Part shown: positions 6,703 to 61,714 of the stretch, piece after piece
Layout of the letters: each line of letters opens with the position of its first letter
How positions within the stretch are numbered: the stretch's first letter is position 1
Origin: Nannocystis pusilla
GTDB lineage: Bacteria > Myxococcota_A > Polyangia > Nannocystales > Nannocystaceae
DNA: 64,000 nucleotides
Assembly (NCBI RefSeq): GCF_026626665.1
Contig: NZ_JAPNKE010000002.1
Span: forward strand, 3,693,168 to 3,757,167
Direction of reading: 5' to 3'
Notes under the pieces: model-generated
Databases searched by the model: none
What the model was told of the DNA's origin: nothing
The model's input: only the letters and a program-made list of their open reading frames with translations
Program-made: the position numbers and the translations under genes

Positions 6703-9585
6703 CGAGCATCGTCGGTGTGGCCGGCTGGCTCGCACTCACGGAGCCCTCCCCGGCGGGCCCTCCCTCCGCGGGACCGACTAACTCGCGAACCGTCTCGCAG
6801 TCTCCGGTCGAGGGACCGGCGAGGACGCCGAACGATCCGCGCCGTGCAGATCGGGCGGCCATTTCCGGCTACGTGCGCGACGCCGCGAAGCGACCGGTTC
6901 CGGCCGCGACGGTGTGCGCGGCGTCGTCGTCGGAGGCGCTCGGCGCGTCGGAGCGGCGCGCGAGGCCTTGCACGATCGCAGCGGCGGACGGCTGGTATCG
7001 CCTCGACGGCCTGCTGGCAGCGCCGCATCGCGTCACCGCCAGCGCGCCGCATTTCATCCCGCAGGCGCACCGGAGCGGCTCCGGGGCCCTGGCGCGCGAG
7101 CTGGTGCCTCTGCGCTCCGGGCAGGAACAGCGCGGCATCGACATCACGCTGCTGCCCGGCGGGGTCAACCTCGTCGGGATCGTGCGCGACCTCGGCGGCG
7201 GAGAGGTCGATGGGGCGATCGTCGAAGCGGGCGACGCGGCCGGGCGCTCGGGCGCGGACGGGAGCTTCTCGCTGAGGGTCCGCCCGGGCGAGGTGCTGGT
7301 GAGGGCGACGGCGGAGGGCTACGCGGACACGCAGGCCTCCGGGCGCGCACCGGGATTGACGCTCGAGGTCCTCATGACTCCCGAGTCGGTGCTGCTCGGC
7401 CGGGTGGTGCGCGCCGACGACGGATCGCCGGTCGCGGGCGCCGAGGTGAGCGCGCTCGACGGCGGCGGCTGGGGTCGCCAGGGACCGGCCTTCACCGACG
7501 CCTCCGGAAACTTCAGGATCGACGCGCTGCGACCCGGTGCCTACAAGGCGCGGGCGCTGCATGACGAGGGTCATGGTGCTGCGGCGGCGCTGGTGGTGCT
7601 CGGCCTCGGTGAAACCTCCGCGCCGGTGGAGGTTCGCATGCACCCGGCTTTCCTGGTCGAAGGGACAGTCGTGATCGCCGGCGGGGGCACGTGCGATCGT
7701 GGCTCGATCATCCTCTCGGATCCCCAAGGTCAGCGTCATGCGGCTATCGCCCCCGACGGCAGGGTGCGGATCCCGGCTGCTGCCCGGGAGTTACAAAGTG
7801 GATGTCCGGTGCGAAGGGTTCGTGTCGGCGCCGAGCTACCCGCCCCTGGCGATCGCCGACCGCAGCCTCCGCGAGCTACGGTGGGAGGTCCGACCGGGTC
7901 AGGCGATCCGCGGCACGGTCGTCGCTAAGACCAGGGAGCCCGGCACTGCGACGACGGTGACGGTGAGCCCGCAGGTCGATCCGAGCCGTTCGAATGCGCA
8001 GTCGACCAGCGGCCGCGCAGAGGCCGACGACAACGGACGGTTCGAAGTCACGGGCCTGCTGCCGGGGCGCTATGCATTGCGCGTGTTCGCCGGAGATCCG
8101 CCGCAGCTCCTCCCAGGGCCCGAAATCGAGGTTCGTGAAGGACATGACCTCGACGGCCTCCGCATCGAGCTTCCGGCGGCCGGCGAGGTTCGTGGCGAGG
8201 TCCGCGACGTCCACGGCCGAGCCATCCCCGGCGCGCGAGTCTTGCTTCGCGGGCCGAACTACGCGCAGACGACCAGCCTCGACGACGGGAGCTTCCGCCT
8301 CTCCGGCCTCGCTGCCGGCGCGTACCAGGCGAGCGTGAGCAAGAGCTACCAGCCGATGCGCATGCACGACGCCGAGGACGGTGATGCGCCGCGCGTGCAG
8401 GTCGAGACCGGCGAGGCCGCGGTCCTCGACCTCGTCGTCGAGGCCCCGGGCGGGAGGATCACCGGACGGGTCGTGGATGGCGACGAGGCCGCGCAAGACG
8501 ACGTCTTCGTCGAGGTCTTGCACGAGCCCGAGAGCGGCTCACCCGGGGCCGCCTTGCGCGACATGCGGTGGAGCATGGACCGCGGCCTGCGGCCACGGAT
8601 GACCGACGTCGACGGAAGATTCGAGTTTGGCGACCTGCCTGAAGGGACATATACGCTCGTAGCCCACCGGCGTGGCGGCGGCGAGGGGATCGTCGAACGC
8701 GTGGCGCTCGGCAGCGAGGTCGTCGTCCAGATCGCCGCACCGGGCTCGCTGGTCGGAAGGGTGCGCTCGCCCGTCGGCGGCGGACCGGAGCGATTCTCGG
8801 TGGAGCTCCGCGATGTGGCGACCGGCTACCAGGTACGCGACAGCTTCTTCCGCACCGACGGAACGTTCGCGTTCCCGCAGGTCCCCGCAGGGAAGTTCGT
8901 GGTCGCGGTCGAGGCACCCGAAGGCTCGGGCAAGGCCGAGGTCGCGCTGGTGACGGGCGAGCGCGGACAGGTCGAGGTCGTGCTGGCGGGCCGCGTGACC
9001 GTCCGTGGCCGCGTGCTCGACCTCGACACCGGCGAGCCGGTGCCGGGGATGCGCGTGAAGTTCGGCGCGGAAGGGACAGAGGCGTTCATCAGCTCGGCGG
9101 ATCATGTCGACGAGCGCTCGGTGTCCGACGCGGAGGGCCGGTTCGAGGTCGCCGACGTGCCTGTCGGCCACGCGACGGTGGTCGTCACGGCCCGGAGCTT
9201 CGGAGCGACGAGCGACCACGAGACCATCTGGACGCGGGCGATGATCTCGAGCGGTGGCGTGGTCGAACTGGCGCCGCTCCAGGTGCCGCGACGACGGCTT
9301 CACCCCGGCGACGAGGCCGGCGAGCTCGGCATGAGGATGCGGCGCGACGACCCGACGGAGGGAGCGGAAGCGCGGCGGCCGACAGTCGCGTTCGTGCAGC
9401 CTGGCGGCCCGGCGGCGCACGCCGGGCTGCGGCCCGGCGACGCGATCGTCGCGGTCGACGGACATGACGTCACCGGCGACCACGTGCAGCGCTTCGATGC
9501 CCTGACACGTGTGCCCGTGGGAACCGAGCTCCGCCTCGAGCTCGTGCGTGGAGGCAGCGTCACCCTCACCGCCGCACGCCGATGA
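6615..9585 (+). CDS. membrane-anchored anti-sigma-like protein with carboxypeptidase-regulatory-like (CarboxypepD_reg) repeats and a C-terminal PDZ domain; frameshift near 7700
   Basis: TM helix AKVILVTSIVGVAGWLAL sits just downstream of the sigma gene. Repeated GxVxDxxGxPVxGAxVxxxxxxxxTDxxGxFxxxxLxxGxY units. C-terminal PDZ: GLRPGDAIVAVDG. Confidence 0.6.
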
Positions 9586-17972: not shown

Positions 17973-18498
17973 TCAGTGGGCCGGCGGCGTCGCGTAGGTC
18001 ACCGCGGTCGCGCCGCTCTGCTTGAGCGCCTCGCCGATCGCGAACTCCCACGTCTTGTGACCGGCCAGCTCGCACCGATCGTGCTCGATGTCCTCGCACA
18101 GGTAGAACGGCAGCGGCGAGCCCTGTCCGGGGACCACTGCGAAGCCGGTCCACAGCGGGCACCCGCCGTAGTGCAGCTTGAGGAGCAGCTTGTCGCCCTC
18201 GATCTTGGGCTCGGCCTCGTGCAGAGAGCTGGCGATCCGGAAGCCCTCGGGGCAACGATCGACCACCAGGCCGACGTAGTTGTGGCCCTCGGTCTTGAGC
18301 GCGAACGCGGGATCCTTGCTGCGATCGTTCTTGCTGACCGCTCCAGCCGGCTCGCTCGGCTTGGCCGGCTCGCTCGGCTTGGCCGGCTCGCTCGGCTTGG
18401 CCGGCTCGGCCGCCTTGGCCGGCTCGGCTGCTTCGGCTTGTCGCAGGCGACGAGCACGGGAGAGAGAGGAGAGTGGCGAAGAGATGCGAGGGTTGCAT
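17973..18498 (-). CDS. small secreted/lipoprotein-like protein with (AKPSEP)n repeats encoded by 15-bp tandem repeats
   Basis: N-terminus MQPSHLFATLLSLPCSS. A 15-bp repeat sits at 18345-18420. The C-terminal domain is conserved-looking (HYGGCPLWTGFAVVPG). Frame switching makes the model uncertain. Confidence 0.35.
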
Positions 18499-18930: not shown

Positions 18931-20394
18931 ATGATTCGCCCTCACCACCGCCAACCGCGCCGGCTGCTCGGCGCCGTGCTCCTCGCCCTCGGCGCTTGCA
19001 ACCCCGCCGTGCTCGACCCCTTCGAAACCGACGGCGCCACCGAACCCGGCGCCACCGTCGACCCCGGCAGCACGAGCGGCGCCACCGGCCCCGCCGAATC
19101 GACCTCCGGCGCGAGCACGACCGCCGACCTGACCACCACCGGCACCACCGGCGGCGACGAGCCGCTGCCGAGCTGCGACGGTCCGGTCACCGACTGCAAG
19201 CTGGACCTGGACCGCGACGGCGTGATGGGGCACTGCGACAACGCTCCCGATCACTTCAACCCTGACCAGTCGGACGTCGACGGCGACGGCTTCGGCGACG
19301 TCGCCGACCTCTGCCCCACTCTCCCAGTCGGCGAGCCCAAGGCCGACAGCGACAAGGACGGCATCGGCAACGCCTGCGACCTGTGCGTCAAGGCGGCCGC
19401 GCACTACAACGACCCCGACGCCCCGATCCCCGAGCGCCTGAAGGTGCGCAACATCCCGAGCACCGCCGACAGCGATCGCGACGGCATCGGCGACGCCTGC
19501 GACAACTGCGTGCGCACCCCCAATTGCGAGGGCTACGGCGAGGGCCTCGACCCGTACGAGCTCGGCGATCCGATCGCCTTCGACGGCCCCGACTGCCAGA
19601 TCGACGCCGACAACGATCTCGTCGGCGACGCCTGCGCCGGCACCATGCTCCCGGGCGCCGCCGGCCCGGTCGGCTTCGGCCTCGACGACGACTTCGACCA
19701 GGACGGCCTGCGCAACGGGGACGACGGCTGCCCGCGCCAGCCCGTGCCCCTGCAGGCGTGCGACGACGACGTCGACTGCCCGACGGCCAGCAAGTGCGTC
19801 CAGGGCCAGTGCGGCCACGCCGACCTCGACGGCGACGACGTCGGCGACATCTGCGACCCCCTGCCCCTTCGTCGGCAACCCGCAGCAGGTCCAGCCGGGC
19901 ATGGCGGAGGAGAGCGACCAGGACGGCGACTTCGTCGGCTTCAACTGCGAGTCCACGTCGGACGCCGACCTCGTCCCCGACCCGCGCCGGATCGGCTTCT
20001 ACGACCTCAGCGCCAACGGCTATTGCTGCGTCCGCCTCCACCCCGCCGGCACCACCCTCGATCCCGACGGCGCCACCGTGCCGCTGCCCGCCAAGGTCCT
20101 CGCCCAACCAGGCGTCGGCCAGCTCCGCCCGGCTGCGCCCAGGAGGGCCAGCCGCTGAACGGCACCGTCGACCTCGCCACCTTGTGGGCCAGCTTCTGCC
20201 TCATGCCGCAGTCGGACCAGGACTTCGACGGCGTCGGCGACGTCGTCGATCTGTGCCCCTGGTCGTTCGACCCTGTCAACACCGTCTACGTCGACGACGC
20301 GAACATGCAATGGGAGAACTACGGCGAGTTCTGCCAGGGCGAGTACAGCCCCGAGCACCTTGACCCGGCGATGATGTGCATGCCGGGCACCTGA
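18931..20394 (+). CDS. lipoprotein with thrombospondin type-3 (calcium-binding DxDxDGxxDxxD) repeats; two frameshifts
   Basis: N-terminus LGAVLLALGACNP is a lipobox. Many DSDKDGIGNACDLC / DSDRDGIGDACDNC repeats spread over three frames. Confidence 0.6.
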   Translation: MIRPHHRQPRRLLGAVLLALGACNPAVLDPFETDGATEPGATVDPGSTSGATGPAESTSGASTTADLTTTGTTGGDEPLPSCDGPVTDCKLDLDRDGVMGHCDNAPDHFNPDQSDVDGDGFGDVADLCPTLPVGEPKADSDKDGIGNACDLCVKAAAHYNDPDAPIPERLKVRNIPSTADSDRDGIGDACDNCVRTPNCEGYGEGLDPYELGDPIAFDGPDCQIDADNDLVGDACAGTMLPGAAGPVGFGLDDDFDQDGLRNGDDGCPRQPVPLQACDDDVDCPTASKCVQGQCGHADLDGDDVGDICDPLPLRRQPAAGPAGHGGGERPGRRLRRLQLRVHVGRRPRPRPAPDRLLRPQRQRLLLRPPPPRRHHPRSRRRHRAAARQGPRPTRRRPAPPGCAQEGQPLNGTVDLATLWASFCLMPQSDQDFDGVGDVVDLCPWSFDPVNTVYVDDANMQWENYGEFCQGEYSPEHLDPAMMCMPGT

Positions 20395-20723: not shown

Positions 20724-20930
20724 TCACAGGTTGCTGTTGTTCTCGGCCTTGTAGCCCAGCTTGCGCTCGATCTCTTCGCGGCGCTCACCCGAGCGCTCCT
20801 GAATGATCCCGCACAGCTTGTCGGCGTTGCCTTCGGCCTTGAGGAAATCGTCGTCGGTCAGGTTCCCCCAGAACTGCTTCGCCTTGCCCTTGAGCTGCTC
20901 CCACTTCCCCTGGATTTGATCGCGGTTCAT
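20724..20930 (-). CDS. csbD: CsbD-family general stress protein
   Basis: RBS GGAGAAACCGACC then ATG. Product [48 protein letters not shown] is the canonical CsbD fold sequence. Confidence 0.7.
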
Positions 20931-21431
20931 GGTCGGTTTCTCCGCCCACCAGTTTGATCGTGGTTGCACGGCGCGCCTGCCCGACTAGCGCCACGAAACG
21001 GCGCCAGGCGCTCGCCGACGGCCCTTGTCGGACCGTCGATTTCGGCGGCCCGTTCGCCATTCCCACCGTTCGCGCGCATGACGCCGCCCGATCGTACGAA
21101 TCACGCCGCAGCGGGCTCGGCCGTATGAACCCGCCTCCCCCTCGACCTCGGCGCCTTTCTGCGGGGACGCGGGCGTGGAGACGGGGGTATCACCTGGCCC
21201 GCACCCGAGACCCGATCCTCGCAGCGACTCTTGCATAGGCGTCATGCGAAAGATCACCTGCCCGGCCGCGCTCGGCCCCCTGCGCGCCCCGCCACGAATC
21301 ACCATTCGTGCGAATCATGGGCCCTCACGGGCTGCGGCGGCCGGGCGCGGCCACCCGCTCGTCGGAGTTCACCGCGCCGCGGCCAGCGGCCGGCGGGGCG
21401 CCTCGGACACCGCGGACACAAGGAGCATCGG

Positions 21432-24400
21432 GTGAACCTCACCAGGGACGAGCAGCGCACGTCGCTCACCAAGCGGCTCACCGTAGCGATCGCCACGCCG
21501 ATCGCCCTCCTGTTGCTGCTCGGCGTCGTCCTCGGCCGGCAGATCCTCCTGATGGCGGACGACGCCGCCTGGGTCAACCACAGCAATGAAGTCCTCTCGC
21601 AGGCCAACGCGACGATGCTCGAGATCGTCGATCAGGAGACCGCCCTGCGCGGCTTCCTGTTGACCGGCGATCGCCAGTATCTGGGCCCGTTCGAGCGGGC
21701 GCACCCTGACGGCAAGTTCGAGCGCCTGCACGAGATCGTCGCCGACAGCCCCTCGCAGCAGGCTCAGTTCGATCAGGCCCACCAGCACTACCGCGAGTGG
21801 TACGCCACCTGCGAGGCCGCCCTGAACGGTCACGACCTCGACCAGGCGCGCAGCCCCGCCGCCATGCTCGCGCGCAAGGCCCGGATGGACGACATCCGCG
21901 AAGCCATGGCCGTGGCCACCGACATCGAGAAGGACCTGCTGCGCGCGCGCCGTCGCCTCGGAGCGCTCGACCGCGGTCGCGCGGACCGCCTTCGTCGCGC
22001 TGCTCGCCGGCGTCGCCCTCCTGCTCGCCTTCCTCTCGCGCCGTCAGCTCGCCGCGATCGCCAGCACCTTCGGCACCGCCCTCGACGCCGAGCAGCAGGC
22101 CCGCGCCGCGCTCGAGGCCGAGGCGTGGATCCGCGAGGGTCACACGCGCGTCGCCGAGGTCGTGCAGGGCGAGAAGAGCACCGTGCAGGTCGGCCACGAC
22201 TGCCTGGCCGCGCTCGCCGCTCACGCCGGCGCCGACGTCGGCGCCTTCTTCGTGCGCGACGGCGGCGACTGGGTGCGGCGGATCGGCCTCGCGCTCGACT
22301 CGCGGGTCGCCGGGCCCGAGACCTTCGCCGCCGGTGAGGGCGTCATCGGCCGCGCCGCCGCCGGCGGCCAGGTCGTCGAGCTGCGCGACGCCGCCGAGCT
22401 GCCCCTGCGCACCGGCACCAGCGAGCGCTTCCCCGCCCACGTGCTCGTCCTGCCCGCGCGGGTCGACGGCGTCACCGTCGCCGTGCTCGAGCTCGGCTTT
22501 TTGCGCCCGGCCGAGCCGCGCGTGCGCCGCTGCTCGAGCGGATCGGCGAGACCGTCGCGCTCGCGGTCCGCAGCTCCGAGCAGAAGGAGCGGCTCGCCGC
22601 CCTGCTCGAGGAGACCCAGCGCCAGGCCGAGGAGCTGCAGACCCAGCAAGAAGAGCTGCGGGTGCAGAACGAGGAGCTCGAGCAGCAGACCCGCGCGCTC
22701 GAGGAGTCGCGGGCGCGCCTCGGCAATCAGCAGGCCGAGCTCGAGCAGATCAACGCCCACCTCGAGGAGCAGACGCAGGCGCTGCAGGCCGAGCGCGACA
22801 CCCTCACGCAGGCGCAGATCCAGCTCAAGCGGACCTCGGCCTTCAAGTCCGAGTTCCTCGCCAACATGTCGCACGAGCTGCGCACCCCGCTCAACAGCTC
22901 GCTGATCTTGGCCCGCCTGCTGGCCGACAACCGCCAGGGCAACCTCGACGCCGAGCAGGTCAAGTTCGCCGAGACCATCTACTCCGCCGGCAACGACCTC
23001 CTCACCCTCATCAACGACATCCTCGACCTGTCGAAGATCGAGGCCGGCATGCTCGACGTCCGGCCCGAGACCATCTCGCTGGCGCGGCTCACCGATCAGA
23101 TGATGACGACCTTCCGCCCGGTCGCCCGCGACCGGCGGCTCGCCCTCGACCTCGACGTCCAGCGCGACGTCCCGGGCGCGCTCGTCACCGATCCGACGCG
23201 GCTGTCGCAGATCCTGCGCAACCTGCTGTCGAACGCGCTCAAGTTCACCGAGCAGGGCGGCGTCAAGCTCACGGTGCGCGCCGCCGGGGCCGGCAGGGTC
23301 GCCTTCGACGTCACCGACACCGGCATCGGCATCCCGCCCGATCAGCAGGAGCTGATCTTCGAAGCGTTCCGCCAGGCCGACGGCACGACCAACCGCAAGT
23401 ACGGCGGCACCGGCCTTGGTCTGTCGATCTCACGCGACCTCGCGCGCCTGCTCGGCGGCGAGCTCACCGTCGCCAGCGTCGTCGGCCGCGGCAGCACCTT
23501 CACCCTCACCATCCCCGCGCAGCTCGTCGTCCATGGCTCGGCCGCGGCGCCGAGCCTCGCGCCCTTGCCGCCTCCGCCGCCGCTTCCTCCCCTGCGTCGC
23601 CTCCCCGCGCCCCCGCCTCTGCCCCAGACGCCGACCGCCGCGCGCTCGATCCTCCTCGTCGAGGACGACCCCGCGTTCGCCGGCGTCCTCGCCGGCCTCG
23701 CGCGCGAGCTCGACTTCCACCCCTCCACGCCGACACCGCCGAGGAGGGCCTTGCGCTCGCGCGGCAGCAGCGGCCGAGCGCCATCGTCCTCGACGTCTCT
23801 CTGCCCGACCGCTCCGGCCTCAGCGTCCTCGACGCGCTCAAGCATGACCCTGCGACCCGGCACATCCCGGTCCACGTCATCTCCGCCAGCGACCACACCC
23901 GCACCGCGCTCGAGATGGGCGCGGTCGCCTACGCCATCAAGCCCGTCGTCCGCGATCAGCTGGTCACGGCCTTGCGGCGGCTCGAGTCGAAGGCCACCCA
24001 GTCGCTGCGGCGCGTCCTCGTCGTCGAGGACGACGTCGTCCACCGCGAGAGCACCTGCAAGCTGCTCGCGGCCGACGACGTCGAGACCGTCCCGGTGGGC
24101 ACCGCCGCCGACGCGCTCCGCGCGTTGCGCACCACCACCTTCGACTGCATGGTCCTCGACCTCAGCCTGCCCGACAGGTCAGGTTCCGAATTGTTGCGGG
24201 AGATGGCCCAGGGCGAGCAGTACGGGTTCCCGCCCGTCATCGTCTACACCGGCCGCGCGATCAGCCGCGCCGAGGAGCAGGAGCTCGGGCGCTTCTCGCA
24301 GTCCATCATCATCAAGGGCGCGCGCTCGCCGGAGCGGCTGCTCGACGAGGTCACCCTGTTCCTCCACCAGGTCGAGACCAACCTTCCGCCCGAGCGACAG

Positions 24401-24811
24401 CGCATGCTGCGGGACGCTCGCCACCGCGACGCCGTGTTCGAGGGCCGGCGCGTGCTCGTCGTCGAGGACGACGTCCGCAACGTATTCGCCTTGACCAGCG
24501 TGCTCGAGCCGCGCGGGGCCAAGGTGGAGATCGCGCGCAACGGCAAGGAGGCGCTGCAGCACCTGAAGCTCAAGCCGGGCGTCGACCTGATCCTGATGGA
24601 CCTGATGATGCCGGAGATGGACGGCCTCACCGCCACGCGGGCGATCCGCGCCGACCCGGCGACCGCCAAGATCCCGATCATCGCCCTCACCGCCAAGGCC
24701 ATGGCCGACGATCGCGCCAGCTGCCTCGCCGCCGGCGCCAACGACTACATCGCCAAGCCGCTCGACGTCGACAAGCTGCTGTCGCTGGCGCGGGTGTGGA
24801 TGCCCAAATGA
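21432..24811 (+). CDS. hybrid sensor histidine kinase: CHASE3-GAF-(E/Q-rich coiled coil)-HisKA-HATPase-REC-REC-REC; at least three frameshifts
   Basis: RBS aggagcatcg then GTG at 21432. A TM segment precedes the CHASE3 region. GAF: ...[15 protein letters not shown].... H-box: [15 protein letters not shown]-box: GGTGLGLSI. Three D-containing receiver domains follow. Confidence 0.75.
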
Positions 24812-25623
24812 CGACGTCGCCCGACCCCGAGCTGACCGCGCTGCTCGACGCGGTGTACCACCGCTATCACTACGACTTCCGCGGCTACGCCGAGGCCTCG
24901 CTGCGCCGCCGGATCGGCGCCGCCCTGACCCACCTCCGCTGCCCCACCGTGAACGATTTGCGCGAGCGCGTGCTCGCCGAGCCGCGCGGCTTCAGCGAGC
25001 TGCTCCGCTTCCTCACCGTCCAGGTCAGCGACCTGTTCCGCGACCCCTCGTATTATCGATCGCTCCGCGAGCGCATCGTGCCGTACCTGCGCACTTATCC
25101 CTCGCTCAAGGTGTGGGTCGCCGGCTGCGCCACCGGCGAGGAGGCCTACTCGCTCGCCATCGTGTTCGCCGAGGAGGGCCTGCTCGACCGCACCCTCATC
25201 TACGCCACCGACATCCACCCCGAGAGCCTGCGGGCCGCCGAGGCCGGCGTCTACGACCTCGAGCGCTTCGCCCGCTTCTCCGACAGCTACCGCCAGGCCG
25301 GCGGCCGCGGCTCCCTGTCCGACTTCTACACCGCGCAGTACGCCTCGGCGATCCTCGACCGGCGGCTCAAGCAGGCGATCCTGTTCTCCGACCACAGCCT
25401 CGCCACCGACGTCGCCTTCGCCGAGGTCGAGCTGGTGTCGTGTCGCAACGTCCTGATCTACTTCGACCGCCCGCTGCAGGACCGGGCGATCGGCGTCCTG
25501 CGCGACTCGGTGCGGCGCAAGGGCTTCCTCGGCCTGGGCGCCAAGGAGACCCTGCGGTTCTCGGCGCACGCCGAGGCGTTCACCGAGCTCGTCCCCGAGG
25601 ACCGGATCTATCAACGGCGGTAG
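24808..25623 (+). CDS. cheR: CheR-type protein-glutamate O-methyltransferase
   Basis: ATGA overlap with the upstream HK stop. VWVAGCATGEEAYSLAI, RNVLIYF. Intact. Confidence 0.85.
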   Translation: MTTSPDPELTALLDAVYHRYHYDFRGYAEASLRRRIGAALTHLRCPTVNDLRERVLAEPRGFSELLRFLTVQVSDLFRDPSYYRSLRERIVPYLRTYPSLKVWVAGCATGEEAYSLAIVFAEEGLLDRTLIYATDIHPESLRAAEAGVYDLERFARFSDSYRQAGGRGSLSDFYTAQYASAILDRRLKQAILFSDHSLATDVAFAEVELVSCRNVLIYFDRPLQDRAIGVLRDSVRRKGFLGLGAKETLRFSAHAEAFTELVPEDRIYQRR

Positions 25624-25626
25624 ACC

Positions 25627-26222
25627 ATGGCGACGCGCGACATTCACCTGATCGTGATCGGCGGCTCGTCGGGGGCGCTCGACGCCTCGCCGCCCTGCTG
25701 CCCGCGCTGCCCGCGGGCTATCCGCTGGCGCTGGCCGTGGTCCTGCACCTGCCGCCGACCCAGCCCAGCCACCTCGTCGAGGTCCTGCGCACGAGGACCT
25801 CGCTGCCGACGCGGGAGCCCGACGACAAGGAGCCCATCGTGCCCGGCACGCTCTACGTCGCCCCGCCGAACTACCACCTGCTCGTCGAGCGCGGGCGCAG
25901 CTTCGCCCTCTCGGTCGACCGCCCCGAGCTGTTCTCGCGGCCCTCGATCGACGTGCTGTTCGAGTCGGCCGCCGACGCCTTCGGGCCGCACGTCGCCGGC
26001 GTCCTGCTCAGCGGCGCCAACGAGGACGGCGCCCGCGGCCTCGGCCACATCGCCGCGGCCGGCGGCCTCACCATCGTCGAGTCGCCGACCACCGCCGCGG
26101 TCCCGACCATGCCGGCGGCCGCGCTGCGGCGCGTCGCCGTCGACCACGCCGTGCCGGCGGCCGTCATCGGCACCTTGCTCGCGCGGCTCGCCGCGCCCAC
26201 GCGCTCCGGGGAGGCGACATGA
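25627..26222 (+). CDS. cheB: CheB-type methylesterase catalytic domain with no receiver domain; one frameshift (~25690)
   Basis: IVIGGSSGAL ... PSIDVLFESAA ... GVLLSGANEDGARGL. Start is 3 nt after the cheR stop and it ends in an ATGA overlap with the next gene. Confidence 0.7.
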
Positions 26223-27687
26223 ACCTCGAACCGATCAACTTCCTCCTCGTCGACGACACCGAGCAGAACCTCATCGCCCTCGAGGCGCTCCTGCGGCGCG
26301 ACGGCCTCAACATCCTCACCGCGCGCAGCGGCTTCGAGGCGCTCGAGCTGCTGCTCGTCCACGACGTCGCCCTCGCCTTCCTCGACGTGCAGATGCCGGG
26401 GATGGACGGCTTCGAGCTGGCCGAACTGATGCGAGGCACCGAGCGCACCAAGAACGTGCCGATCATCTTCATCACCGCCGGCGCGCGCGACAGCGAGCGG
26501 GTGTTCCAGGGCTACGAGTCCGGCGCGGTCGATTTCCTGCACAAGCCGATCGACCCGCGGGTGCTGCGGAGCAAGGCCGACGTGTTCTTCGAGCTGTCGC
26601 GGCAGCGGCGCGACTGCACCCACGCCCTGCGCCTCAACGAGATGTTCGTCGGCATCCTCGGCCACGACCTGCGCACCCCGCTGTCGGCGATCCAGACCGG
26701 CACCGAGATCCTCGAGCAGCTGGTGGAAGGCGACGACCAGCGCGGCATCTTGCGGCGCATGTTCGTCTCGAGCCACCGCATGAACGAGATGATCGAGCAG
26801 CTGCTCGACCTCACGCGCGCGGCTGGCCGGCGGCCTCGGCTTCGCGCGCGCGCCAACGGGTCGACCTCTTCGAGCTGGTGCAGCGCGCCGTCGACGAGCT
26901 GCGCACCACGCATTCGCAGCGCGAGGTCCGGGTCGAGACCCTCGGCGACACCGTCACCGCCGGCGATCCCGACCGCCTGGTCCAGGCGCTGTCGAACCTG
27001 ATCGGCAACGCGATCCAGCACGGCCACGCGGACGGCCCGATCGGCATCCGCGTGTTCGACGACGGCCACCAGATCGCGGTCGAGATCCGCAACCGCGGCG
27101 TCATCCCGCCCGAGCTCGTGCCGGTGCTGTTCGACCCGTTCCGCGGCCGCGACCACTCGCCCTCGCGCACCAACGCCCGCGGCCTCGGCCTCGGCCTCTA
27201 CATCGCCCAGCAGATCGCCCAGGCCCACGGCGGCACCGTCTCGGTGCTCTCGAGCGACGAGACCGACACCGTGTTCACGCTCCGCCTGCCGCGCGTCTCG
27301 CCCGAGCCCACGCGCGCCGATCGCCCGGCGCGCGGCCACACCGTGCTGATCGCCGACGACGACGAGGCGACCCGCGAGAGCCTGCGCGAGGCCTTCGCCG
27401 GCGAGGGTTACGCGACCATGACCGCGACCAACGGGCGCGACGCCCTCGACCAATTGCTGCACGCGCGGGTCAAGCCCGACCTCGTGATCCTCGACCTCGT
27501 GATGCCGCTGCTCGAGGGCGGGCAGGTCTATCAGGCCATGCAGGCCGTCCCCGAGCTGGCGCGGATCCCCGTCATCGTGTCGACCTCCGATCCGGCCCGC
27601 GCCCCCGCCGGCACGATCCTGATCCCCAAGCCGGTCAAGCTCGGCCGCCTGCTCGACACCGCCGCGCGGCTCGTCCGCTCGCCGTGA
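26219..27687 (+). CDS. hybrid histidine kinase/response regulator (REC-HisKA-HATPase-REC); frameshift near 26830
   Basis: N-terminal REC (LLVDDTEQN...DVQMPGMDGFEL). H-box GILGHDLRTPLSAI. HATPase GLGLGLYIAQQIAQAHGG. C-terminal REC (VLIADDDEATRE...DLVMP). Confidence 0.75.
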
Positions 27688-27690
27688 GCG

Positions 27691-28152
27691 CTACTCTGGC
27701 CCGCCTCGATCAGCGAGCGGGCCGCCTCGGGCCCGAGCATCCCGAGCACGCGGAAGCGCCTCCTCGAGCTCGTTGTAGTGGACGAAGAATTGCTCGAGGT
27801 CGGCCAGCGCGCGCGGGCTGATGTCCTGCACGCGCTGCAGCTGCTCGTACGTACGCGACACGACGCTGACCGCGAGGAAGCGGTCGTTGCGGACCGGCTC
27901 CTCGCCCGCGGTCGATTGCTCGGCCGTCATCACCCCGAGCAATCGCGCCCGCAGCAGGCAGCCGGCGAACGTCGGCTCGTCGGTGAGCACGAGCGCGTCG
28001 AGCGGGTCGCCGTCGCCGCCCCTGGTGCCGGGGATGAACCCGAACTCGAGCGGGAACGCCATCCCGGCCGGCAGCACCTTGTGCAGGGTGAAGCTCTCCA
28101 GCGCCGGGTCCCACTTGAATTTGCTGCGACTGCCGGCCGGCGACTCGATCAC
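27691..28152 (-). CDS. ppa: inorganic pyrophosphatase
   Basis: ...[17 protein letters not shown]...[21 protein letters not shown]...FFVHYNELE. The N-terminus may be slightly longer (GTG start) and the C-terminus looks extended or frameshifted. Confidence 0.7.
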
Positions 28153-28310
28153 GGCGTGGACGTCGCCTTCGACGAACGCCGGGATCCTTGCGATTTGTCG
28201 CGCGACATGCTCGCCTCATAGCACCCGCGCGCACGCCGTCGAATCGCCGGACTCATCCTTGTTGCCCTACAGGTGCGCGTTCACTGCCGAGTCCGCACGG
28301 GGATAATCCC

Positions 28311-34568: not shown

Positions 34569-35051
34569 ATGAACGGCCCGATGATCGAAACCGCTCAAGA
34601 CCCCACCATCTACCAGGTGATCCGCGAGCAGCACCGCGCCGTCGCGGAGCTGCTCGCCGAGCTGTCGCGCGAGCGGGACGTCGCGCGGGGGCAGCAGCTG
34701 TTCGGCCAGGTCCGCGACGCGCTCGAGCGCCACGCGCGGGCCGAGGAGGCCGTGTTCGACGACATCCTCGCCCAGCAGGACGCGCAGGGCAAGGCGCTGG
34801 TCAAGGACGCCGAGCGGGACCACGCGCAGGTCCGGCAGCAGCTCGCCGAGCTCGAGGCGATGCGGGCCGACGACGCCAAATGGGCGACGAAGGTCGAGGC
34901 GCTCACCCGCAGCGTCACCGATCACGTCGCGTTCGAGGAGAGCACGATCTTCGCCGCGGTCGAGGCCATCCTCGACGACGATCAGGCGCGCACCCTCGCC
35001 GAGACCTTCGAGGCGCTCGAATCACGGGTCGAGCCCGAGGCCGCCGCGTGA
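34569..35051 (+). CDS. hemerythrin-like domain protein
   Basis: IYQVIREQHRAV...LERHARAEEAVFDDIL...DHVAFEESTIFAAV, an H/E/D-rich four-helix pattern. Confidence 0.65.
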   Translation: MNGPMIETAQDPTIYQVIREQHRAVAELLAELSRERDVARGQQLFGQVRDALERHARAEEAVFDDILAQQDAQGKALVKDAERDHAQVRQQLAELEAMRADDAKWATKVEALTRSVTDHVAFEESTIFAAVEAILDDDQARTLAETFEALESRVEPEAAA

Positions 35052-35096
35052 TCGTCCGACTGTGATGATTCGCGGTTCGCCGGGCAGAGGTCGCCG

Positions 35097-36174
35097 ATGA
35101 GCGGAGTCGTATCACCGGAGTTCGTGCTCGCCTCGCGGGAGCCGGACCTGCGTGCGCGGATCGGCGGCCAGGTCCGCTCGCCGCGCGAGGTCGTGGTCAT
35201 GCGCGCCTTGCCGGGCCTCGGCGACTTCCTGTGCGCCACCCCGGCGCTGCGGGCCCTGCGAGCCGCGCTGCCGCGGGCCAGGATCACCCTCCTGGGCCTC
35301 GCCGGGGCCCGCGAGCTCGTCGCCCGCTACCCGCACCTCGTCGACGACCTGCTCGAGTTCCCCGGCTTCCCCGGCCTGCCCGAGACCCCCGCCGACGTGC
35401 GCGCCCTGCCCGACTTCCTGCGCGCGGTCCAGGGCCGCTTCGACCTCGCCCTGCAGATGCACGGCGACGGCCTCGTCAGCAACATCTTCGTCCAGCTGCT
35501 GGGCGCGCGCGAGCGCCGGCTTCTACGCCCCGCCGCAGCCGTGCCCCGATCCCGCGACCTTCGTGCTCTACCCCGGCGACTTCGCGGAGCCGCGGATCCT
35601 CCTCGCCTTGCTCGCCGCGCTCGGCATCGAGGCGCGCGGCGAGCGGCTCGAGTTCCCGCTCGCGCCGGACGACGCGCACCAGTGCGACGCATTGCTGCAG
35701 GCCGCCGGCCTCGCGCCCGACGCCGCGTTCGCGATCGTCCACCCCGGCGCCGCCGAGCCGCACCGCCGCGTCGACCCCGGCGTCCTCGCGCAGGTCGCCG
35801 ACGGCCTCGTGACCCGCGGCCTCGCGGTCGTCCTCACCGGCGCCGCCGACGAGGCCGACCTCGCCGCCGCGGTCCGCCGCCACGCCCAGCGCGACCTCGT
35901 CGATCGGGTCGGCCGCACCGGCCTCGGCTCGCTCGGCGCCCTGGTCGCGCGCGCTCGCCTCGTCGTCGCCGGCGACACCGGCGTCTCGCACCTCGCCAGC
36001 GCGCTGTGTACCCCGAGCGTCGTCGTCTTCCGCAGCACCGCCCCGGGCCGCTGGGCGCCCCTCGATCGCGTGCGTCACCGCGTCGTCGACGCCCGCGTGG
36101 TCGCGCCGACGGCCGCGGCGATCCTCGCCGAGGCCGACGCCGCCCTGTTCCTCGCGGGGGTGGATCGTGCTTGA
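35097..36174 (+). CDS. GT9-family glycosyltransferase (ADP-heptose heptosyltransferase-like); frameshift near 35515
   Basis: N-domain [23 protein letters not shown]-domain [24 protein letters not shown]. Confidence 0.65.
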
Positions 36175-36688
36175 CCCGCGGGTCGCCCTCCGCCGCGCTC
36201 GCCGGCTGCTCGTCGTCCCGCCCGCGGCCGGCTGCGACGAGCTCGGGCCGGCGCTCGTGCGCCTGCGCGTCGCGGTGCCGCAGGCGAAGGTGGTCCTGCT
36301 GGCCGACGCGCGCGCGGCCGGGCGCGTCGCCGCCTTCGTCGACCAGGTCGTGCCGGCCGGCGCCCTGACGCGGTTCGACGCCCCGCACCTCTCGACCCTG
36401 GTCGAGCGGCTGGCCGCAGCGCGCCTCGACGCCGCCCTGGTGTTCACGGCCGCCGGCGAGACCGCCTTCGAGGTCGCCTACCTCGCCTATCTCGCCGGCA
36501 TCCCGGTGCGCGCCGGCTTCGCCGGCGAGTTCGGCGGCGGCGTGCTGGCGCCGGCCGTCCCGCCCCCGTCGGCCCGCGTCATCGGTCCGGGGCGTCACCT
36601 CTCCCTGCTCGACGCGCTCGACCTGAGCGCGGCTCTCGCCCCCGCGAGCGCGAAAGCGAGGCCCTCGTGCGACGACTCCGCGTCCTGA
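36167..36688 (+). CDS. GT9 N-terminal-domain-only protein; possibly fused to the downstream GT4 by a frameshift
   Basis: GTG overlaps the upstream stop. Matches only the N-terminal Rossmann half of heptosyltransferases. It ends 20 nt into the next ORF in another frame. Confidence 0.4.
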
Positions 36689-37630
36689 CCTGGCACGTTC
36701 ACGGCAGCTACCTCTACTACCTCACCCAGGCCCCGCACGAGTTCTACCTGCCCGTAAAGCCAGGTCGTCCCGAGGGCTACGGCGGGCGCAGCGGCAGCTT
36801 CCCCTGGGGCGCCAACGTCCACGAGGTCCCGGTCGAAGCCGTCGCCCAGCAGCCATTCGACGTCGTCCTGTTCCAGTCGCGCCGCAACTACGAGTGCGAT
36901 CAATTCGAGGTCCTCGGCGCCGCCCAGCGCCGCCTGCCGCGCGTCTACCTCGAGCACGATCCGCCGCGCGAGTCGCCGACCGACACCCGCCACCCCGTCG
37001 ACGACCCCGACGTCTTGCTCGTCCACGTCACCCCGTTCAACGCCCTGATGTGGGACGCCGGGCGCACCCCCGTGCGGGTCGTCGAGCACGGCGTCGTCGT
37101 CCCCGACGACGCCGTCTACAGCGGCGAGCTCGCGCGCGGCGTCGTCGTCGTCAACGACCTCGCGCGGCGCGGGCGACGGCTCGGCCGCGACGTGTTCGAC
37201 CGCGTGCGCGCCCACGTCCCGCTCGACCTCGCCGGCATGGACTCGGCCGCGCTCGGCGGCCTCGGCGACCTGCCGCTGGGCGAGCTCCACGCCCGGCTCG
37301 GCCGCTACCGCTTCTTCTTCAACCCGATCCGCTACACCAGCCTCGGCCTGGCCGTGTGCGAGGCGATGATGATCGGCCTGCCGATCCTCGGCCTCGCCAC
37401 CACCGAGATGAGCACCGCCGTGCAGCGCGGCGTCAACGGCTACGTCGAGACCGACCTCGACCGCCTGCTCGCGCACATGCGGCGCCTGCTCGCCGATCCG
37501 GCCGAGGCCGCCGAGCTGGCCGCCGGCGCGCGGCGGATCGCCCGCCAGCGGTTCGGCATCGCCCGCTTCGCCGCCGACTGGTCGCGGATCCTGGGCGAGG
37601 TCACAGGCTGTCCCGAAGGACATCTAATAA
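36667..37630 (+). CDS. GT4-like glycosyltransferase; 3' end unresolved
   Basis: [19 protein letters not shown]...EAMMIGLPILG.... Frame 1 has no stop until 40098 and runs into a 78-bp repeat array with atypical codon usage. A +1 shift near 37595 would end at the double stop TAATAA (37625-37630). Confidence 0.5.
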
Positions 37631-38040
37631 CCCACGCTCGCGGATGTCCCGAGAGCCAGGTCGGAGCCCCGGCCGAGGTCACCGGGTGTCCGGATGGACA
37701 TGCCACCGCCCACGCCACGGGATGTCCCGAGAGCCAGGTCGGAGCCCCGGCCGCTCTCCAAGGATGTGCCGATGGACCTGCCATCGCCCACGCCACGGGA
37801 TGCCCCGAAAGCCAGGTCGGAGCCCCGGCCGATATCCCCGGATGTCCCGATGGACTAGCCACCACCGGCGCCACGGAATGTCCCGAGAGCCAGGTCGGAG
37901 CCCCGACCGACCTCCCCGGATGTCCCGATGGACAGGCTATCGCCCCACCCGGCTCCCCGGCATGTCCCGGAGACCAGGTCGGCCCCCTGGCCGGGATCAC
38001 CGCCTGTCCCGCGGGACAGGCCCCGGAGCCCCCCGGAGGA
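37598..38040. repeat. tandem array of ~5.6 copies of a 78-bp unit (one copy 84 bp) between the two GT4 genes; each unit carries GGATGTCCCGAGAGCCAGGTCGGAGCCCCGGCC and GTCCGGATGGACATGCC-like motifs; ends in the perfect palindrome CCTGTCCCGCGGGACAGG (37999-38016)
   Basis: Direct repeat boundaries at 37598, 37675, 37753, 37831, 37909 and 37993. GC3 of the in-frame reading is far below the local coding norm (gga/tgt/gat/cat codons). Confidence 0.7.
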
Positions 38041-38044
38041 CCGC

Positions 38045-39916
38045 GTGAAGCCGCTGCCGTTCGAGACCGGCGCCGGCGTCGGCCATTCGCAGAGCCCGCT
38101 GCGGATCGCCATGATCAGCGAGCACGCCTCGCCGCTCGCCCCGCTCGGCGGGCGCGACAGCGGCGGCCAGAACGTCTACGTCGCCCAGGTCGCGCGCCAC
38201 CTCGGCCGCCTCGGCCACCGCGTCGACGTGTTCACCCGCCGCGACAGCCCGACCTTGCCGGCGGTCGTCGAGCTGGCCGACGGCGTGCGCGTGATCCCGG
38301 TCGACGCCGGCCCGCCCGCGCCGCTGGCCAAGGAGTCGCTGCTGCCGCTCATGCCTGCCTTCACCCGCGAGGTCGCGGCCCACGCCCGGCGCGAGCGCTA
38401 CGACCTCGCGCACGCCAACTTCTTCATGAGCGGCCTCGTCGCCGCCGAGCTCAAGCGCGAGCTCGGCGTCCCGTTCGCGGTCACCTTCCACGCGCTCGGC
38501 AAGGTCCGGCGGCAGCACCAGGGCCAGGCCGACGGCTTCCCCGACGAGCGCTTCGCCATCGAGGCGCGGGTCGTCGGCGAGGCCGACCTGATCGTCGCCG
38601 AGTGTCCGCAGGACGAGGTCGACCTCATGACCCTCTACGCGGCCGACCCCGAGAAGCTGGTCATGATCCCGTGCGGCTTCGACCCCGAGGAGTTCTGGCC
38701 CGGCGGTCGCGCCGAGGCCCGCGCCGCGCTCGGCCTCGCCGACGGCGACCGCGTCGTCTTGCAGCTCGGGCGCATGGTCCCGCGCAAGGGCGTCGACAAC
38801 GTCATCCGCGCGCTCGCGCGGCTGCCGGGCGAGCTGCGCGCGCGGCTCGTCGTCGTCGGCGGCGAGTCGCGCCGGCCCGACCCGGCCCTCACCCCCGAGA
38901 TCGGCCGATTGATGGCGGTCGCCCGCGACGAGGGCGTCGCCGATCGCGTCACCTTCGTCGGCAGCCGCGGCCGCGGCGAGCTGCGCGACTACTACGTCGC
39001 CGCCGACGTATTCGTCAGCACCCCCTGGTACGAGCCGTTCGGCATCACCCCGCTCGAGGCCATGGCCTGCGGCGTCCCGGTCGTCGGCGCCAACGTCGGC
39101 GGCATCGCCCACACCGTCGCCCACGGCGAGACCGGCTACCTCGTCCCGCCGAGCGACCCCGACGCCCTGGCCGACAAGCTCGCCCTCGTGCTGTCGCAGC
39201 CGCGCCTGGCCCGGCGCCTGGCCCAGCTCGGCCTGCAGCGCGTCCACGCGTTGTTCACCTGGGAGAAGGTCGCCGCCCGCCTGGCCGACGCCTTCGCCGC
39301 GGCCGCGGGCCGGCGCCCCGCCCAGGCCCCCACCGCCGCCTTCGCCGCGGTCGATCGCGGCTTCGACGACCTCCTCGCGGTGCTCTCGCGCGCCAAGACC
39401 TGCCTGCGCGACGACATCGTCCGCGCCGCCGACCTCGTCAGCGGCGCCTTTGCCCGCGGCGCCAAGGTGCTCGTGTGCGGCAACGGCGGCAGCGCCACCG
39501 ACGCCCAGCACTTCGCCGCCGAGCTCGTCGGCCGCTTCCTCGCCCCCGACCGCGCCGCCTTGCCGGTCATCGCCCTCAACGCCGACACCGCGGTCCTGAC
39601 CGCGTGGGCCAACGACGTCGGCTACGCCGACGTGTTCGCCCGCCAGGTCCGCGCCTACGGCCGCCCCGGCGACGTGGTGTTCGGCATCTCGACCAGCGGG
39701 CGCTCGGCCAACGTCGTCGCCGCCCTCAAGACCGCGCGCGACTGCGGCCTGCGCACCTTCGCCTTGCTCGGCGGCACCGGCGGCGAGGCCGGCGATCTCG
39801 CCGACTGCGCCCTCATCGTCCCCTCCCCCGACACGCAGCGCATTCAGGAGGTCCACACATTGGCCCTCCACCTGATCTGCGAATTGGTCGAGGCGCGGGT
39901 GGCCCCGTCGTCCTGA
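38045..39916 (+). CDS. bifunctional GT4 glycosyltransferase (MshA-like) fused to SIS-domain sedoheptulose-7-phosphate isomerase (GmhA)
   Basis: RBS ggagga then GTG 38045 (alternative ATG 38111). GT4: LRIAMISEHASPL...GGQNVYV...EPFGITPLEAMACGVPVV. C-terminal SIS: VCGNGGSATDAQHFAAELVGRF...GISTSGRSANV. Confidence 0.75.
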   Translation: MKPLPFETGAGVGHSQSPLRIAMISEHASPLAPLGGRDSGGQNVYVAQVARHLGRLGHRVDVFTRRDSPTLPAVVELADGVRVIPVDAGPPAPLAKESLLPLMPAFTREVAAHARRERYDLAHANFFMSGLVAAELKRELGVPFAVTFHALGKVRRQHQGQADGFPDERFAIEARVVGEADLIVAECPQDEVDLMTLYAADPEKLVMIPCGFDPEEFWPGGRAEARAALGLADGDRVVLQLGRMVPRKGVDNVIRALARLPGELRARLVVVGGESRRPDPALTPEIGRLMAVARDEGVADRVTFVGSRGRGELRDYYVAADVFVSTPWYEPFGITPLEAMACGVPVVGANVGGIAHTVAHGETGYLVPPSDPDALADKLALVLSQPRLARRLAQLGLQRVHALFTWEKVAARLADAFAAAAGRRPAQAPTAAFAAVDRGFDDLLAVLSRAKTCLRDDIVRAADLVSGAFARGAKVLVCGNGGSATDAQHFAAELVGRFLAPDRAALPVIALNADTAVLTAWANDVGYADVFARQVRAYGRPGDVVFGISTSGRSANVVAALKTARDCGLRTFALLGGTGGEAGDLADCALIVPSPDTQRIQEVHTLALHLICELVEARVAPSS

Positions 39917-39928
39917 ATCATGGCCCCC

Positions 39929-40171
39929 GGAGGACCGATGACCCGCGTGTTCGCATCATCCCTCGCCACGACCGACCGCTCGGACCTCTGCATCGAATCA
40001 TCGCCATCGGAGGACCGATGACCCGCGTGATCGCATCTCTCGTCACCCGCGGCGGCTCCGGCCCCTGCATCGAATCATCGCCATCGGAGGACCGATGACC
40101 CGCGTGATCGCATCTCTCGTCACCCGCGGCGGCTCCGGCCCCTGCATCGAATCATCGCCATCGGAGGACCG
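39929..40171 (+). repeat. three tandem copies (80, 77, 77 nt) of the RBS + start codon + first ~20 codons of the downstream SDR gene; they form a chain of three ATGA-overlapping mini-ORFs (27, 26, 26 aa)
   Basis: ggaggaccgATGacccgcgtgatcgc... recurs at 39929, 40009 and 40086. The authentic gene starts at 40172. Each mini-ORF stop, TGA, overlaps the next ATG. Confidence 0.75.
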
Positions 40172-40912
40172 ATGACCCTCGTGATCGAATCACCCCTCGC
40201 GGACAAGATCGTCCTCGTCACCGGCGGCGGCTCGGGCCTCGGCGCCGAGATCGGTCGCACCCTCGCGGCCGCCGGCGCCCACGTGATCGCCGCCGACATT
40301 CAGACCGGCCCGCTCGCCCGCCTCGTCGCCGAGGTGCGCGACCTCGGCGGCCGCATCGAGGCGGCGGAGCTCGACGTCCGCGACGCCGACGCCGGCCAGG
40401 CCTTGGTCGACGGCATCGTCGCCCGCCACGGCCGGCTCGACGTCCTCGTCAACAACGCCGGCACCGACAAGACCTTGGCGGTCGACGAGCTCAGCGTCGA
40501 CGACATCGACCGCGTCCTCGCCGTCAACCTGCGCGGCCCGTTCGTCCTCAGCCGCGCCGCCTTCCCGCGCCTGCGCGCCCAGGGGGGCGGCTACATCGTC
40601 AACATCGTCTCGACCGCCGCCAAGCGGGCCTGGCAGAACGCCAGCGCCTACCACGCCAGCAAGTGGGGCCTTTTGGGCCTCTCGCACGCCCTGCACGTCG
40701 AGGGCCGCCCATTCGGCATCAAGGTCACCGCCCTGCTGGCCGGCGGCATGCGCACCCCCTTCATCCTCGACCGCTTCCCCGACACCCCGATCACCAACCT
40801 TCAGGACCCGCGCAACGTCGCCGAGACCATCCGCTTCCTCCTCGCCATGCCCGGCGAGTCGGTCATCCCCGAGCTGATGGTCGTGCCGATGCGCGAGACG
40901 AGCTGGCCATGA
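40172..40912 (+). CDS. classical SDR-family oxidoreductase
   Basis: VLVTGGGSGLGAEIG, NNAG, YHASKWGL. Intact. Overlaps gmhB via ATGA. Confidence 0.8.
   Translation: MTLVIESPLADKIVLVTGGGSGLGAEIGRTLAAAGAHVIAADIQTGPLARLVAEVRDLGGRIEAAELDVRDADAGQALVDGIVARHGRLDVLVNNAGTDKTLAVDELSVDDIDRVLAVNLRGPFVLSRAAFPRLRAQGGGYIVNIVSTAAKRAWQNASAYHASKWGLLGLSHALHVEGRPFGIKVTALLAGGMRTPFILDRFPDTPITNLQDPRNVAETIRFLLAMPGESVIPELMVVPMRETSWP

Positions 40913-58636: not shown

Positions 58637-61714
<3,078 letters not shown>

Follow-up and report, generated by a model that had tools for sequence, protein, structure and literature searches.

The sensor kinase RsbK of Bacillus cereus has the domain order CHASE3-HAMP-GAF-S-helix-HK-CA-REC, and its signaling helix is methylated by RsbM, a CheR-type enzyme, with the effect that sigma-B signaling is repressed; methylation of the S-helix exerts this repression together with the REC (receiver) domain (PMC4574943, PMC12848376). 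RsbK-like kinases have been reported from 10 phyla (PMC4574943, PMC12848376), and the RsbK/RsbM system has no cognate CheB (PMC4574943). For another CHASE3 kinase, RsfS of M. smegmatis, the absence of an RsbM homologue has been stated (PMC10950880). In Pseudomonas putida, the cfcABCDE genes (PP_3761 cluster) encode the CHASE3/GAF hybrid kinase CfcA, which activates the diguanylate cyclase CfcR, and the pair CheR3/CheB3, encoded by cfcB and cfcC (PMC4951495). The bmsA cluster of Pseudomonas alkylphenolica is the other known example of this cassette (PMC8175716). Here, we describe a four-gene operon (HK1, cheR, cheB, and HK2; positions 21432 to 27687) in a stretch of 64,000 nucleotides (nt) of Nannocystis pusilla DNA, the whole of which is called the window. 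Our analysis indicates that this operon probably is a self-contained cassette outside chemotaxis, in which an RsbM-type CheR methylates a coil of EEL heptads in the histidine kinase HK1 and CheB reverses the modification, and that the frame breaks in the operon most probably are artifacts. To our knowledge, CheR-type methylation of a histidine kinase has been demonstrated only for B. cereus RsbK. Thus, methylation of a kinase helix is an already known mechanism and not a new one, because RsbM was shown to methylate the homologous S-helix of RsbK; a preliminary description of the locus, made from the sequence alone, had called the mechanism poorly characterized, which holds outside Bacillus. 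New here is that an RsbK-like helix and scaffold and an RsbM-like CheR are found in a myxobacterium, joined to CheB and a second kinase.

The window has a GC content of about 72%, its nearest relatives are Nannocystis species, and an N. pusilla contig was 95.7% identical to it across 21.8 kb. Only cheR is intact in the window. The four proteins were rebuilt by frame stitching and then compared with intact orthologues, and Pfam was run on the repaired versions with a cutoff of E ≤ 0.01 for MCPsignal and HAMP. The features of the operon are given below.

21432-24811, plus strand: HK1, RsbK/CfcA-type hybrid sensor kinase, about 1127 to 1129 residues when repaired; three deletions
21477-22038, plus strand: HK1 sensor module, with transmembrane segments TM1 (21477-21536) and TM2 (21985-22038) and a periplasmic CHASE3 domain (21564-21950) between them
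22183-22568, plus strand: cytoplasmic GAF domain of HK1 (GAF_2, E = 7.4e-07, residues 256-379), spanning the frame break at 22528
22602-22838, plus strand: S-helix coiled coil of HK1, residues about 391-469, from column statistics of 121 and 80 sequences
22629-22679, plus strand: EEL heptad array of HK1, with Glu pairs 400/401, 407/408, and 414/415; proposed site of CheR/CheB modification
22845-23522, plus strand: kinase core of HK1, HisKA (E = 8e-19) and HATPase_c (about 23187-23522, E = 1e-31)
23646-24808, plus strand: three receivers of HK1, REC1 (about 23646-23962), REC2 (about 24011-24334), and REC3 (about 24449-24808)
24808-25623, plus strand: cheR, predicted RsbM-type protein-glutamate methyltransferase, 271 residues, CheR_N and CheR domains
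25627-26222, plus strand: cheB, receiver-less methylesterase catalytic domain, 198 residues when repaired; 1-nt deletion after 25685
26219-27687, plus strand: HK2, REC-HisKA-HATPase-REC hybrid kinase, about 490 residues when repaired; two 2-nt deletions

The homology of HK1 and CheR to RsbK and RsbM was examined with an 896-residue RsbK (P0183), the numbering of which reproduces the published H505, N625, and D827. HK1 and RsbK aligned collinearly by blastp over 874 residues with 30% identity (E = 3e-103). The S-helix of RsbK reads TEELQVQ-SEELQTQ-AEELQMQ-AEELRTT, and the HK1 array aligned with RsbK residues 431-447 with the EEL heptads in register (RsbK residues 431-454), so that E401, E408, and E415 of HK1 correspond to E432, E439, and E446 of RsbK. 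Glu439 and Glu446, which each occupy the second Glu position of their EEL heptad, are reportedly the methylated residues of RsbK mapped by Chen et al. in 2012. The single REC domain of RsbK was 50% identical to REC3 of HK1, including the C-terminal VW[ML]xK. In B. cereus, rsbM lies directly downstream of rsbK, and RsbM matched the window CheR over its full length with 39% identity and 224 bits, compared with 118 bits for the CheR domain of a CheB-CheR fusion elsewhere in the window and 95 bits for a sequence of Escherichia coli CheR; the window CheR and RsbM were far more similar to each other than either was to these two. The homology to RsbK/RsbM thus supports the earlier proposal that a histidine kinase is itself the direct target of methylation, while its adaptation part, together with the action of this CheR on this coil, the choice of Glu residues, and reversal by CheB, is what we infer from sequence.

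The heptad coil quoted in the preliminary description between GAF and HisKA was found exactly, in one frame, at 22629-22808. To examine its conservation, repaired HK1 was aligned with 120 homologues (121 sequences, overall identity 55 to 96%), and the S-helix alignment was then used to scan one genome per species. With tblastn, at least 439 stretches could be confirmed, of which the 80 best form the locus set for the comparative counts, covering Myxococcota, Alpha-, Beta-, and Gammaproteobacteria, Acidobacteriota, Verrucomicrobiota, and Planctomycetota (five phyla); 70 of the 80 loci were informative in that their sequence extends at least 4 kb beyond the coil in the downstream direction. The motif RQxEELQxQxEELRVxNEELExQ (R397-Q419) was invariant or nearly so in the 121 sequences, and the coil was as conserved as the H-box both there and in the 80 species, across which all six Glu positions of the array were at least 96% Glu. 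Coil identity among the 80 loci ranged from 63 to 81% over 62 to 80 residues, except for one Nannocystis locus that was 100% identical. Between residues 402 and 465, Leu recurs every 7 positions, in a register that continues into the helix of the DHp (dimerization and histidine phosphotransfer) domain; therefore, the Glu pairs 400/401, 407/408, and 414/415 fall at exposed heptad positions b and c. The a positions are occupied by the polar residues Q, N, S, or G. Among the 80 loci, the array and the catalytic His were 69, 76, or 83 residues apart, apart from two with 84 and one with no detectable H-box, and hence the length of the coil varies in whole heptads. From these alignments, the EEL array appears to be rigidly coupled to the DHp helix. 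When the window was translated in six frames, a triple EE[LMI] heptad array occurred only twice, once in HK1 and once in the CheB-CheR fusion (about 60.8 kb), and in 1.35 Mb of related loci it occurred in HK1 orthologues only.

The coil had also been likened to the methylation helices of methyl-accepting chemotaxis proteins (MCPs) and to the NEELQ repeats of CheB-CheR fusions. The second likeness was borne out, with the coil of the window's CheB-CheR fusion being the second-best match of the S-helix profile in the window (E = 0.002). The first stood for geometry, i.e., Glu pairs spaced by heptads, but not for the MCPsignal domain or the methylation consensus. The MCPsignal profile search of the kinase linker that had been suggested gave no match at E ≤ 0.01, and the coil therefore is not homologous to MCP signaling domains.

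Repaired HK1 was 96 to 98% identical to intact Nannocystis proteins of 1127 residues (97.8% for that of N. pusilla) and contained CHASE3, GAF_2, HisKA, HATPase_c, and three Response_reg domains by Pfam. CHASE3 matched with an E value of 9.6e-25, and the transmembrane segments are hydrophobic stretches seen by direct reading. No HAMP domain was found between TM2 and GAF at the cutoff used, and about 30 residues of RsbK are unmatched there in the alignment with HK1. The catalytic His481 (codon 22872-22874) lies inside the H-box (22866-22895), and REC1 spans the frame break at 23720. REC3 ends with the tail RVWMPK (24791-24808), which was conserved in 66 of the 69 orthologues. The C termini of HK1 orthologues from five phyla (L004 to L083) read KLLSLxRVW[MI][PR][KR]-COOH in these 66, and the last residues of B. 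cereus RsbK are SVWLIK. From its length, this tail would be the alpha-5 helix of the last REC domain, and its conservation points to a REC interaction surface. We also considered it as a tether for CheR and CheB, like the NWETF pentapeptide, and judged this unlikely; it has no terminal aromatic residue, and it has no flexible linker, because only 15 residues follow the KPL motif, as in a normal REC alpha-5 helix.

The CheR protein was identical on an independent Logan contig, and its S-adenosylmethionine (SAM)-binding motifs were conserved in 70 orthologues. It scored 55 bits against the canonical CheR equivalog of NCBIfam, far below the cutoff of 435, and NCBIfam gave a specific family for none of the four proteins. 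In CheB, Pfam found CheB_methylest alone (E = 3.9e-51, residues 9-183) and no REC domain, and Ser14, His41, and Asp134 were conserved in 68 orthologues. The isolated catalytic domain of canonical CheB is constitutively active. Intact orthologues of HK2 had 489 to 490 residues, and HK2 has no coil comparable to that of HK1.

The domain contents of all four genes, including the receiver-less CheB, agreed with the preliminary description, as did their order, but HK1, CheB, and HK2 are not single open reading frames (ORFs) in the window, and the list of simple ORFs gives chimeric ORFs at the operon due to the frame breaks. The coupled junctions it had reported were all present. HK1 starts with GTG at 21432, and its TGA stop (24809-24811) overlaps the ATG of cheR at 24808 (ATGA). 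The TAG stop of cheR (25621-25623) is followed 3 nt later by the ATG of cheB (25627), and the stop of cheB and the start of HK2 share the ATGA at 26219-26222, with GGGGAGG 5 to 11 nt upstream; HK2 ends at 27687. The absence of MCP, CheA, and CheW genes nearby was confirmed as well. MCPsignal, CheW, Hpt, and CheA-type domains were not found by Pfam in coding pieces of at least 90 residues, selected by third-position GC and covering all 64 kb of the window, and none of these was called within 10 kb of the operon in three Nannocystis relatives. A canonical MCP/CheA/CheW set just outside the operon, named earlier as what would speak against the proposal, was thus looked for in the window and not found.

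The co-occurrence of the operon genes, which had been proposed as a check within Myxococcota, was examined beyond this phylum. CheR was encoded downstream of the coil in all 70 informative loci, 2.2 to 2.8 kb away on the same strand, and an HK2-like REC-containing kinase was likewise found in 70/70, downstream on the same strand at a fixed offset. CheB followed in 68 of the 70, also on the same strand and at a fixed offset. The catalytic Ser, His, and Asp of CheB and the SAM-binding motifs of CheR were conserved throughout the loci, and the annotated pAt plasmid of A. vitis has the identical four-gene order. An MCP match was found near 4 of the 80 loci (on the opposite strand in three of the four) and a CheW match near one.

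On the model that we favor, CheR would methylate exposed Glu residues at the b and c positions of the three consecutive EEL heptads, most likely the c-position residues E401, E408, and E415, and the receiver-less CheB would take the methyl esters off the HK1 coil. The methylation state may then alter the packing of the coil and the docking of REC3, the counterpart of the inhibitory REC domain of RsbK, which would reset kinase output to HK2 and/or to unlinked response regulators. Access of CheR and CheB that depends on the conformation of the coil could produce adaptation without phosphorylation of CheB. HK2's N-terminal REC domain is a plausible phospho-acceptor for HK1, by analogy with a proposal made for CfcD (PMC4951495).

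The alternative that survives best is that CheR and CheB act on another substrate, such as chemoreceptors encoded elsewhere in the genome, HK2, or a different site in HK1, with the S-helix serving a structural or REC-docking role and the gene linkage reflecting co-regulation. Several observations favor this alternative or otherwise weigh against methylation of the HK1 coil. In canonical MCPs, small residues flank the methylated [EQ][EQ] pair, with the consensus E-E-x-x-A-S/T. The HK1 coil does not fit this consensus, with A, Q, or N before the Glu pairs and L-Q-T-Q, L-R-V-x, or L-E-x-Q after them, and it has no MCPsignal match; the Glu pairs were invariant, with no E/Q interchange of the kind typical of MCP sites in either the 121 or the 80 sequences. 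REC docking could also be the reason why the coil is conserved. Within this family, direct evidence of methylation was found for Bacillus but for no Gram-negative member. The accessible Pseudomonas papers propose neither an action of CfcB/CfcC on CfcA nor methylation of CfcA, and mutation of the remaining cfc genes does not abolish the crinkly phenotype (cited as unpublished results in PMC4951495). Two of the 70 informative loci (L052 and L055; Kofleriaceae and Hydrocarboniphaga) have HK1-CheR-HK2 without a detectable CheB, resembling the Bacillus arrangement with a methyltransferase alone. The 80 loci are best matches and hence orthologues, so that they show conservation of the cassette but not a linkage of motif and enzymes independent of ancestry.

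Similar coils also exist without adjacent CheR/CheB genes. A plasmid of the Bacteroidota member Chondrinema litorale (L089) encodes a PAS protein (coding sequence 5593-9279) with two related coils, QEEEMRQ-NMEELSA-TQEEMQR, each of which precedes a PAS domain, and no CheR or CheB gene lies within 6 kb; EE[LM] heptads are therefore not to be taken as diagnostic of linkage to CheR/CheB. On plasmid pBMB0231 of Bacillus thuringiensis YBT-1518 (L085, 75166-87705), a second sigma-B module encodes an RsbK-like kinase, which has three EEL heptads, together with RsbY, an RsbV-like STAS protein, RsbW, and SigB, with no rsbM adjacent to the kinase gene.

Despite these points, we consider it unlikely that CheR and CheB have another substrate. 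The helix of RsbK that is homologous to the HK1 coil is methylated by RsbM (PMC4574943), to which this CheR is closely related, CheR was linked to the kinase in every informative locus, compared with the few MCP and CheW matches noted above, and HK2 lacks a comparable coil. For P. putida CheR3/CheB3, PMC4951495 reports no role in chemotaxis, citing Garcia-Fontana 2013.

A second alternative is that the six frame-breaking deletions are real and the operon is a nonfunctional pseudogene cluster in this strain. The breaks were mapped against the operons of Nannocystis sp. RBIL2 (L002) and N. pusilla (L084), both of which are intact. Deletions in HK1 were found at 21941/2 (2 nt), 22528 (1 nt), and 23720 (1 nt), in cheB at 25686 (1 nt), and in HK2 at 26812 and 26843 (2 nt each). 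The three genes are indeed split across frames in the given sequence, and the deletions do not lie in long homopolymers. The N. pusilla HK1 protein matched the window by tblastn in four pieces in frames 3, 1, 3, and 2, and the third-position GC signal changed frame at about 21960, 22530, 23740, 25700, and 26850. However, between the breaks the third-position GC bias was strong, there were no in-frame stops, and protein identity to N. pusilla was 97.8%. Deletions of 1 to 2 nt also hit at least five unrelated neighboring genes within 22 kb, among them the pyrophosphatase gene (three sites), a GAF kinase gene, an SDR gene, and three hypothetical genes. Coding indels of 1 to 2 nt comprised about 17 deletions in the window versus a single 1-nt insertion, whereas intergenic indels were balanced (17 versus 17). 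Moreover, the independent Logan assembly ERR2215891 differed from the window at 2 of 2289 aligned positions (99.9% identity over 2.3 kb), and its contig L001 has the T that is missing at 25686 and an intact 198-residue CheB ORF. Because unrelated genes are hit as well, coding indels are skewed toward deletions, and an independent contig has the missing base, the breaks most probably are systematic deletion errors in the source record and not decay of the operon, and we regard pseudogenization as quite improbable. The frame breaks in this record should be treated as sequence errors.

Outside the operon, the frame-breaking deletions of 1 to 2 nt relative to N. pusilla and RBIL2 lie at 14867, 17427, 18437-18458, 19041-20394, 27695, 27762, 28193, and 30222, and the unrelated genes that they hit are two hypothetical genes, the SDR gene, a gene for a thrombospondin-repeat protein, and the pyrophosphatase and GAF kinase genes. 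A similar switch in the third-position GC frame inside a heptosyltransferase gene near 35500 is possibly another deletion.

That the cassette is a degenerate chemosensory remnant, with MCP, CheA, and CheW lost and CheR/CheB left over with no current substrate, is scarcely credible even though cheR and cheB otherwise are hallmark chemosensory genes and CheB has lost its receiver. The four genes keep their order in five phyla, their catalytic residues are conserved, and their translation is tightly coupled, a pattern that indicates purifying selection on a functional unit and not decay; in addition, the orthologous cassettes mostly do not lie inside complete che clusters.

The operon is bordered upstream by a divergent csbD-like gene (20727-20960, minus strand) and downstream by a convergent pyrophosphatase gene (27691-28206, minus strand), and a promoter and terminator scan of 20900-28300 found nothing exceeding shuffle expectation. 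Elsewhere in the window, a same-strand cluster at about 35000-45500 (plus strand) encodes several family-9 heptosyltransferases and GT4 glycosyltransferases along with a protein with a SIS domain, a PfkB kinase that carries a cytidylyltransferase-like domain, and a HAD phosphatase, and looks like a pathway of ADP-heptose and lipopolysaccharide-core type. At 52000-54000, GC content falls to 62.5% compared with about 72% elsewhere, and an IS66-family transposase fragment (52443-52799) is present; this region is probably the remnant of an insertion sequence.

If HK1 is methylated as we propose, the orphan CheR/CheB pairs found in Pseudomonas and in many bacteria from soil would have a candidate substrate in the residues corresponding to Glu401/Glu408/Glu415 of the neighboring kinase, an assignment that would also connect these pairs with the NEEL coils of CheB-CheR fusions. 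We tentatively suggest, as a possibility that falls short of our expectation for the HK1 coil itself, that the cassette is a complete, chemoreceptor-free module for reversible methylation and adaptation, present in hundreds of genomes and at least five Gram-negative phyla, and that xEELxxx is a portable CheR/CheB recognition element, which the CheB-CheR fusions use intramolecularly. If true, activity-dependent demethylation by a receiver-less CheB would give MCP-like adaptation of outputs unrelated to motility, such as cyclic di-GMP (c-di-GMP) and biofilm, and the orphan CheR3/CheB3 (CfcB/CfcC) of Pseudomonas would be explained. The Bacillus system, for its part, has no methylesterase. In annotation, the CheR and CheB genes of such cassettes should not be counted as chemotaxis genes.

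Compared with canonical MCP systems, the cassette has enzymes of the same CheR and CheB families with intact catalytic residues and predicted opposing activities, and the candidate Glu pairs of the HK1 array, like canonical MCP sites, follow one another at intervals of exactly 7 residues along the same face of a coiled coil. In contrast to the Tar/Tsr system, MCPsignal, CheA, and CheW are absent and the E-E-x-x-A-S/T flanks are unmatched. The substrate would be a coil that is fused directly to a HisKA kinase and presumably forms a parallel two-helix dimer, whereas MCPs form a four-helix bundle. The cassette also lacks the regulatory receiver of CheB and the C-terminal pentapeptide on a flexible linker.

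The window also contains a second, independent CheB/CheR module (57566-63307, plus strand), again with no MCP, CheA, or CheW alongside.

57566-58621, plus strand: CheB-like gene with a Cys-rich C-terminal extension
58650-61715, plus strand: CheB-CheR fusion, 1022 residues; eight xNEELxx heptads, then PAS_10 and PAS domains
61682-63307, plus strand: PAS-PAS-HisKA_3-HATPase kinase

The CheR domain of this fusion was 28% identical to the operon CheR. Like the cassette, CheB-CheR fusions have a heptad array, xNEELQS in about eight repeats, physically linked to CheB/CheR domains. However, in the fusions the enzymes reside in the coil-bearing polypeptide and the coil precedes PAS, whereas in the cassette they are encoded by separate genes and the coil precedes HisKA. 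Just upstream of the second module lies a 21-bp tandem repeat (56462-56711, 12 copies, 84% matches, consensus CCGCCTGCCCGCATCGCAGTT), which in one frame encodes a heptad-like peptide repeat.

Compared with the Bacillus system, HK1 and RsbK share the order CHASE3-TM-GAF-S-helix-HisKA-HATPase-REC and the EEL array at the same place in the S-helix, and in both loci a gene for a CheR-family methyltransferase lies immediately downstream of the kinase gene. RsbK has HAMP, one REC, and four EEL heptads, whereas HK1 has no detected HAMP, three RECs, and three EEL heptads, which sit two heptads further from the His than those of RsbK. The Bacillus output runs through the PP2C phosphatase RsbY to sigma-B; the window cassette has CheB and a second hybrid kinase instead. 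No RsbY, RsbV, RsbW, or SigB was found in the window, and no SpoIIE/PP2C or STAS domains by Pfam; its sole sigma-factor match is an unlinked Sigma70_r2 domain at about 6.1 to 6.4 kb and does not represent a sigB/rsbW cluster. The literature on cfc and bmsA describes biofilm and c-di-GMP output through CfcR, whereas no GGDEF partner is encoded in the window. Nevertheless, in the Pseudomonas clusters (PMC4951495, PMC8175716) as in the window operon, the gene for a CHASE3/GAF hybrid kinase precedes those for CheR, CheB, and a kinase with a REC domain, and two loci of our set, from a member of the Pseudomonadaceae (L063) and a Pseudomonas sp. (L080), carry the same S-helix family with CheR, CheB, and HK2. 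Overall, judged from the published descriptions of PP_3761 and BmsA, the window cassette corresponds to cfcABCDE/bmsA.

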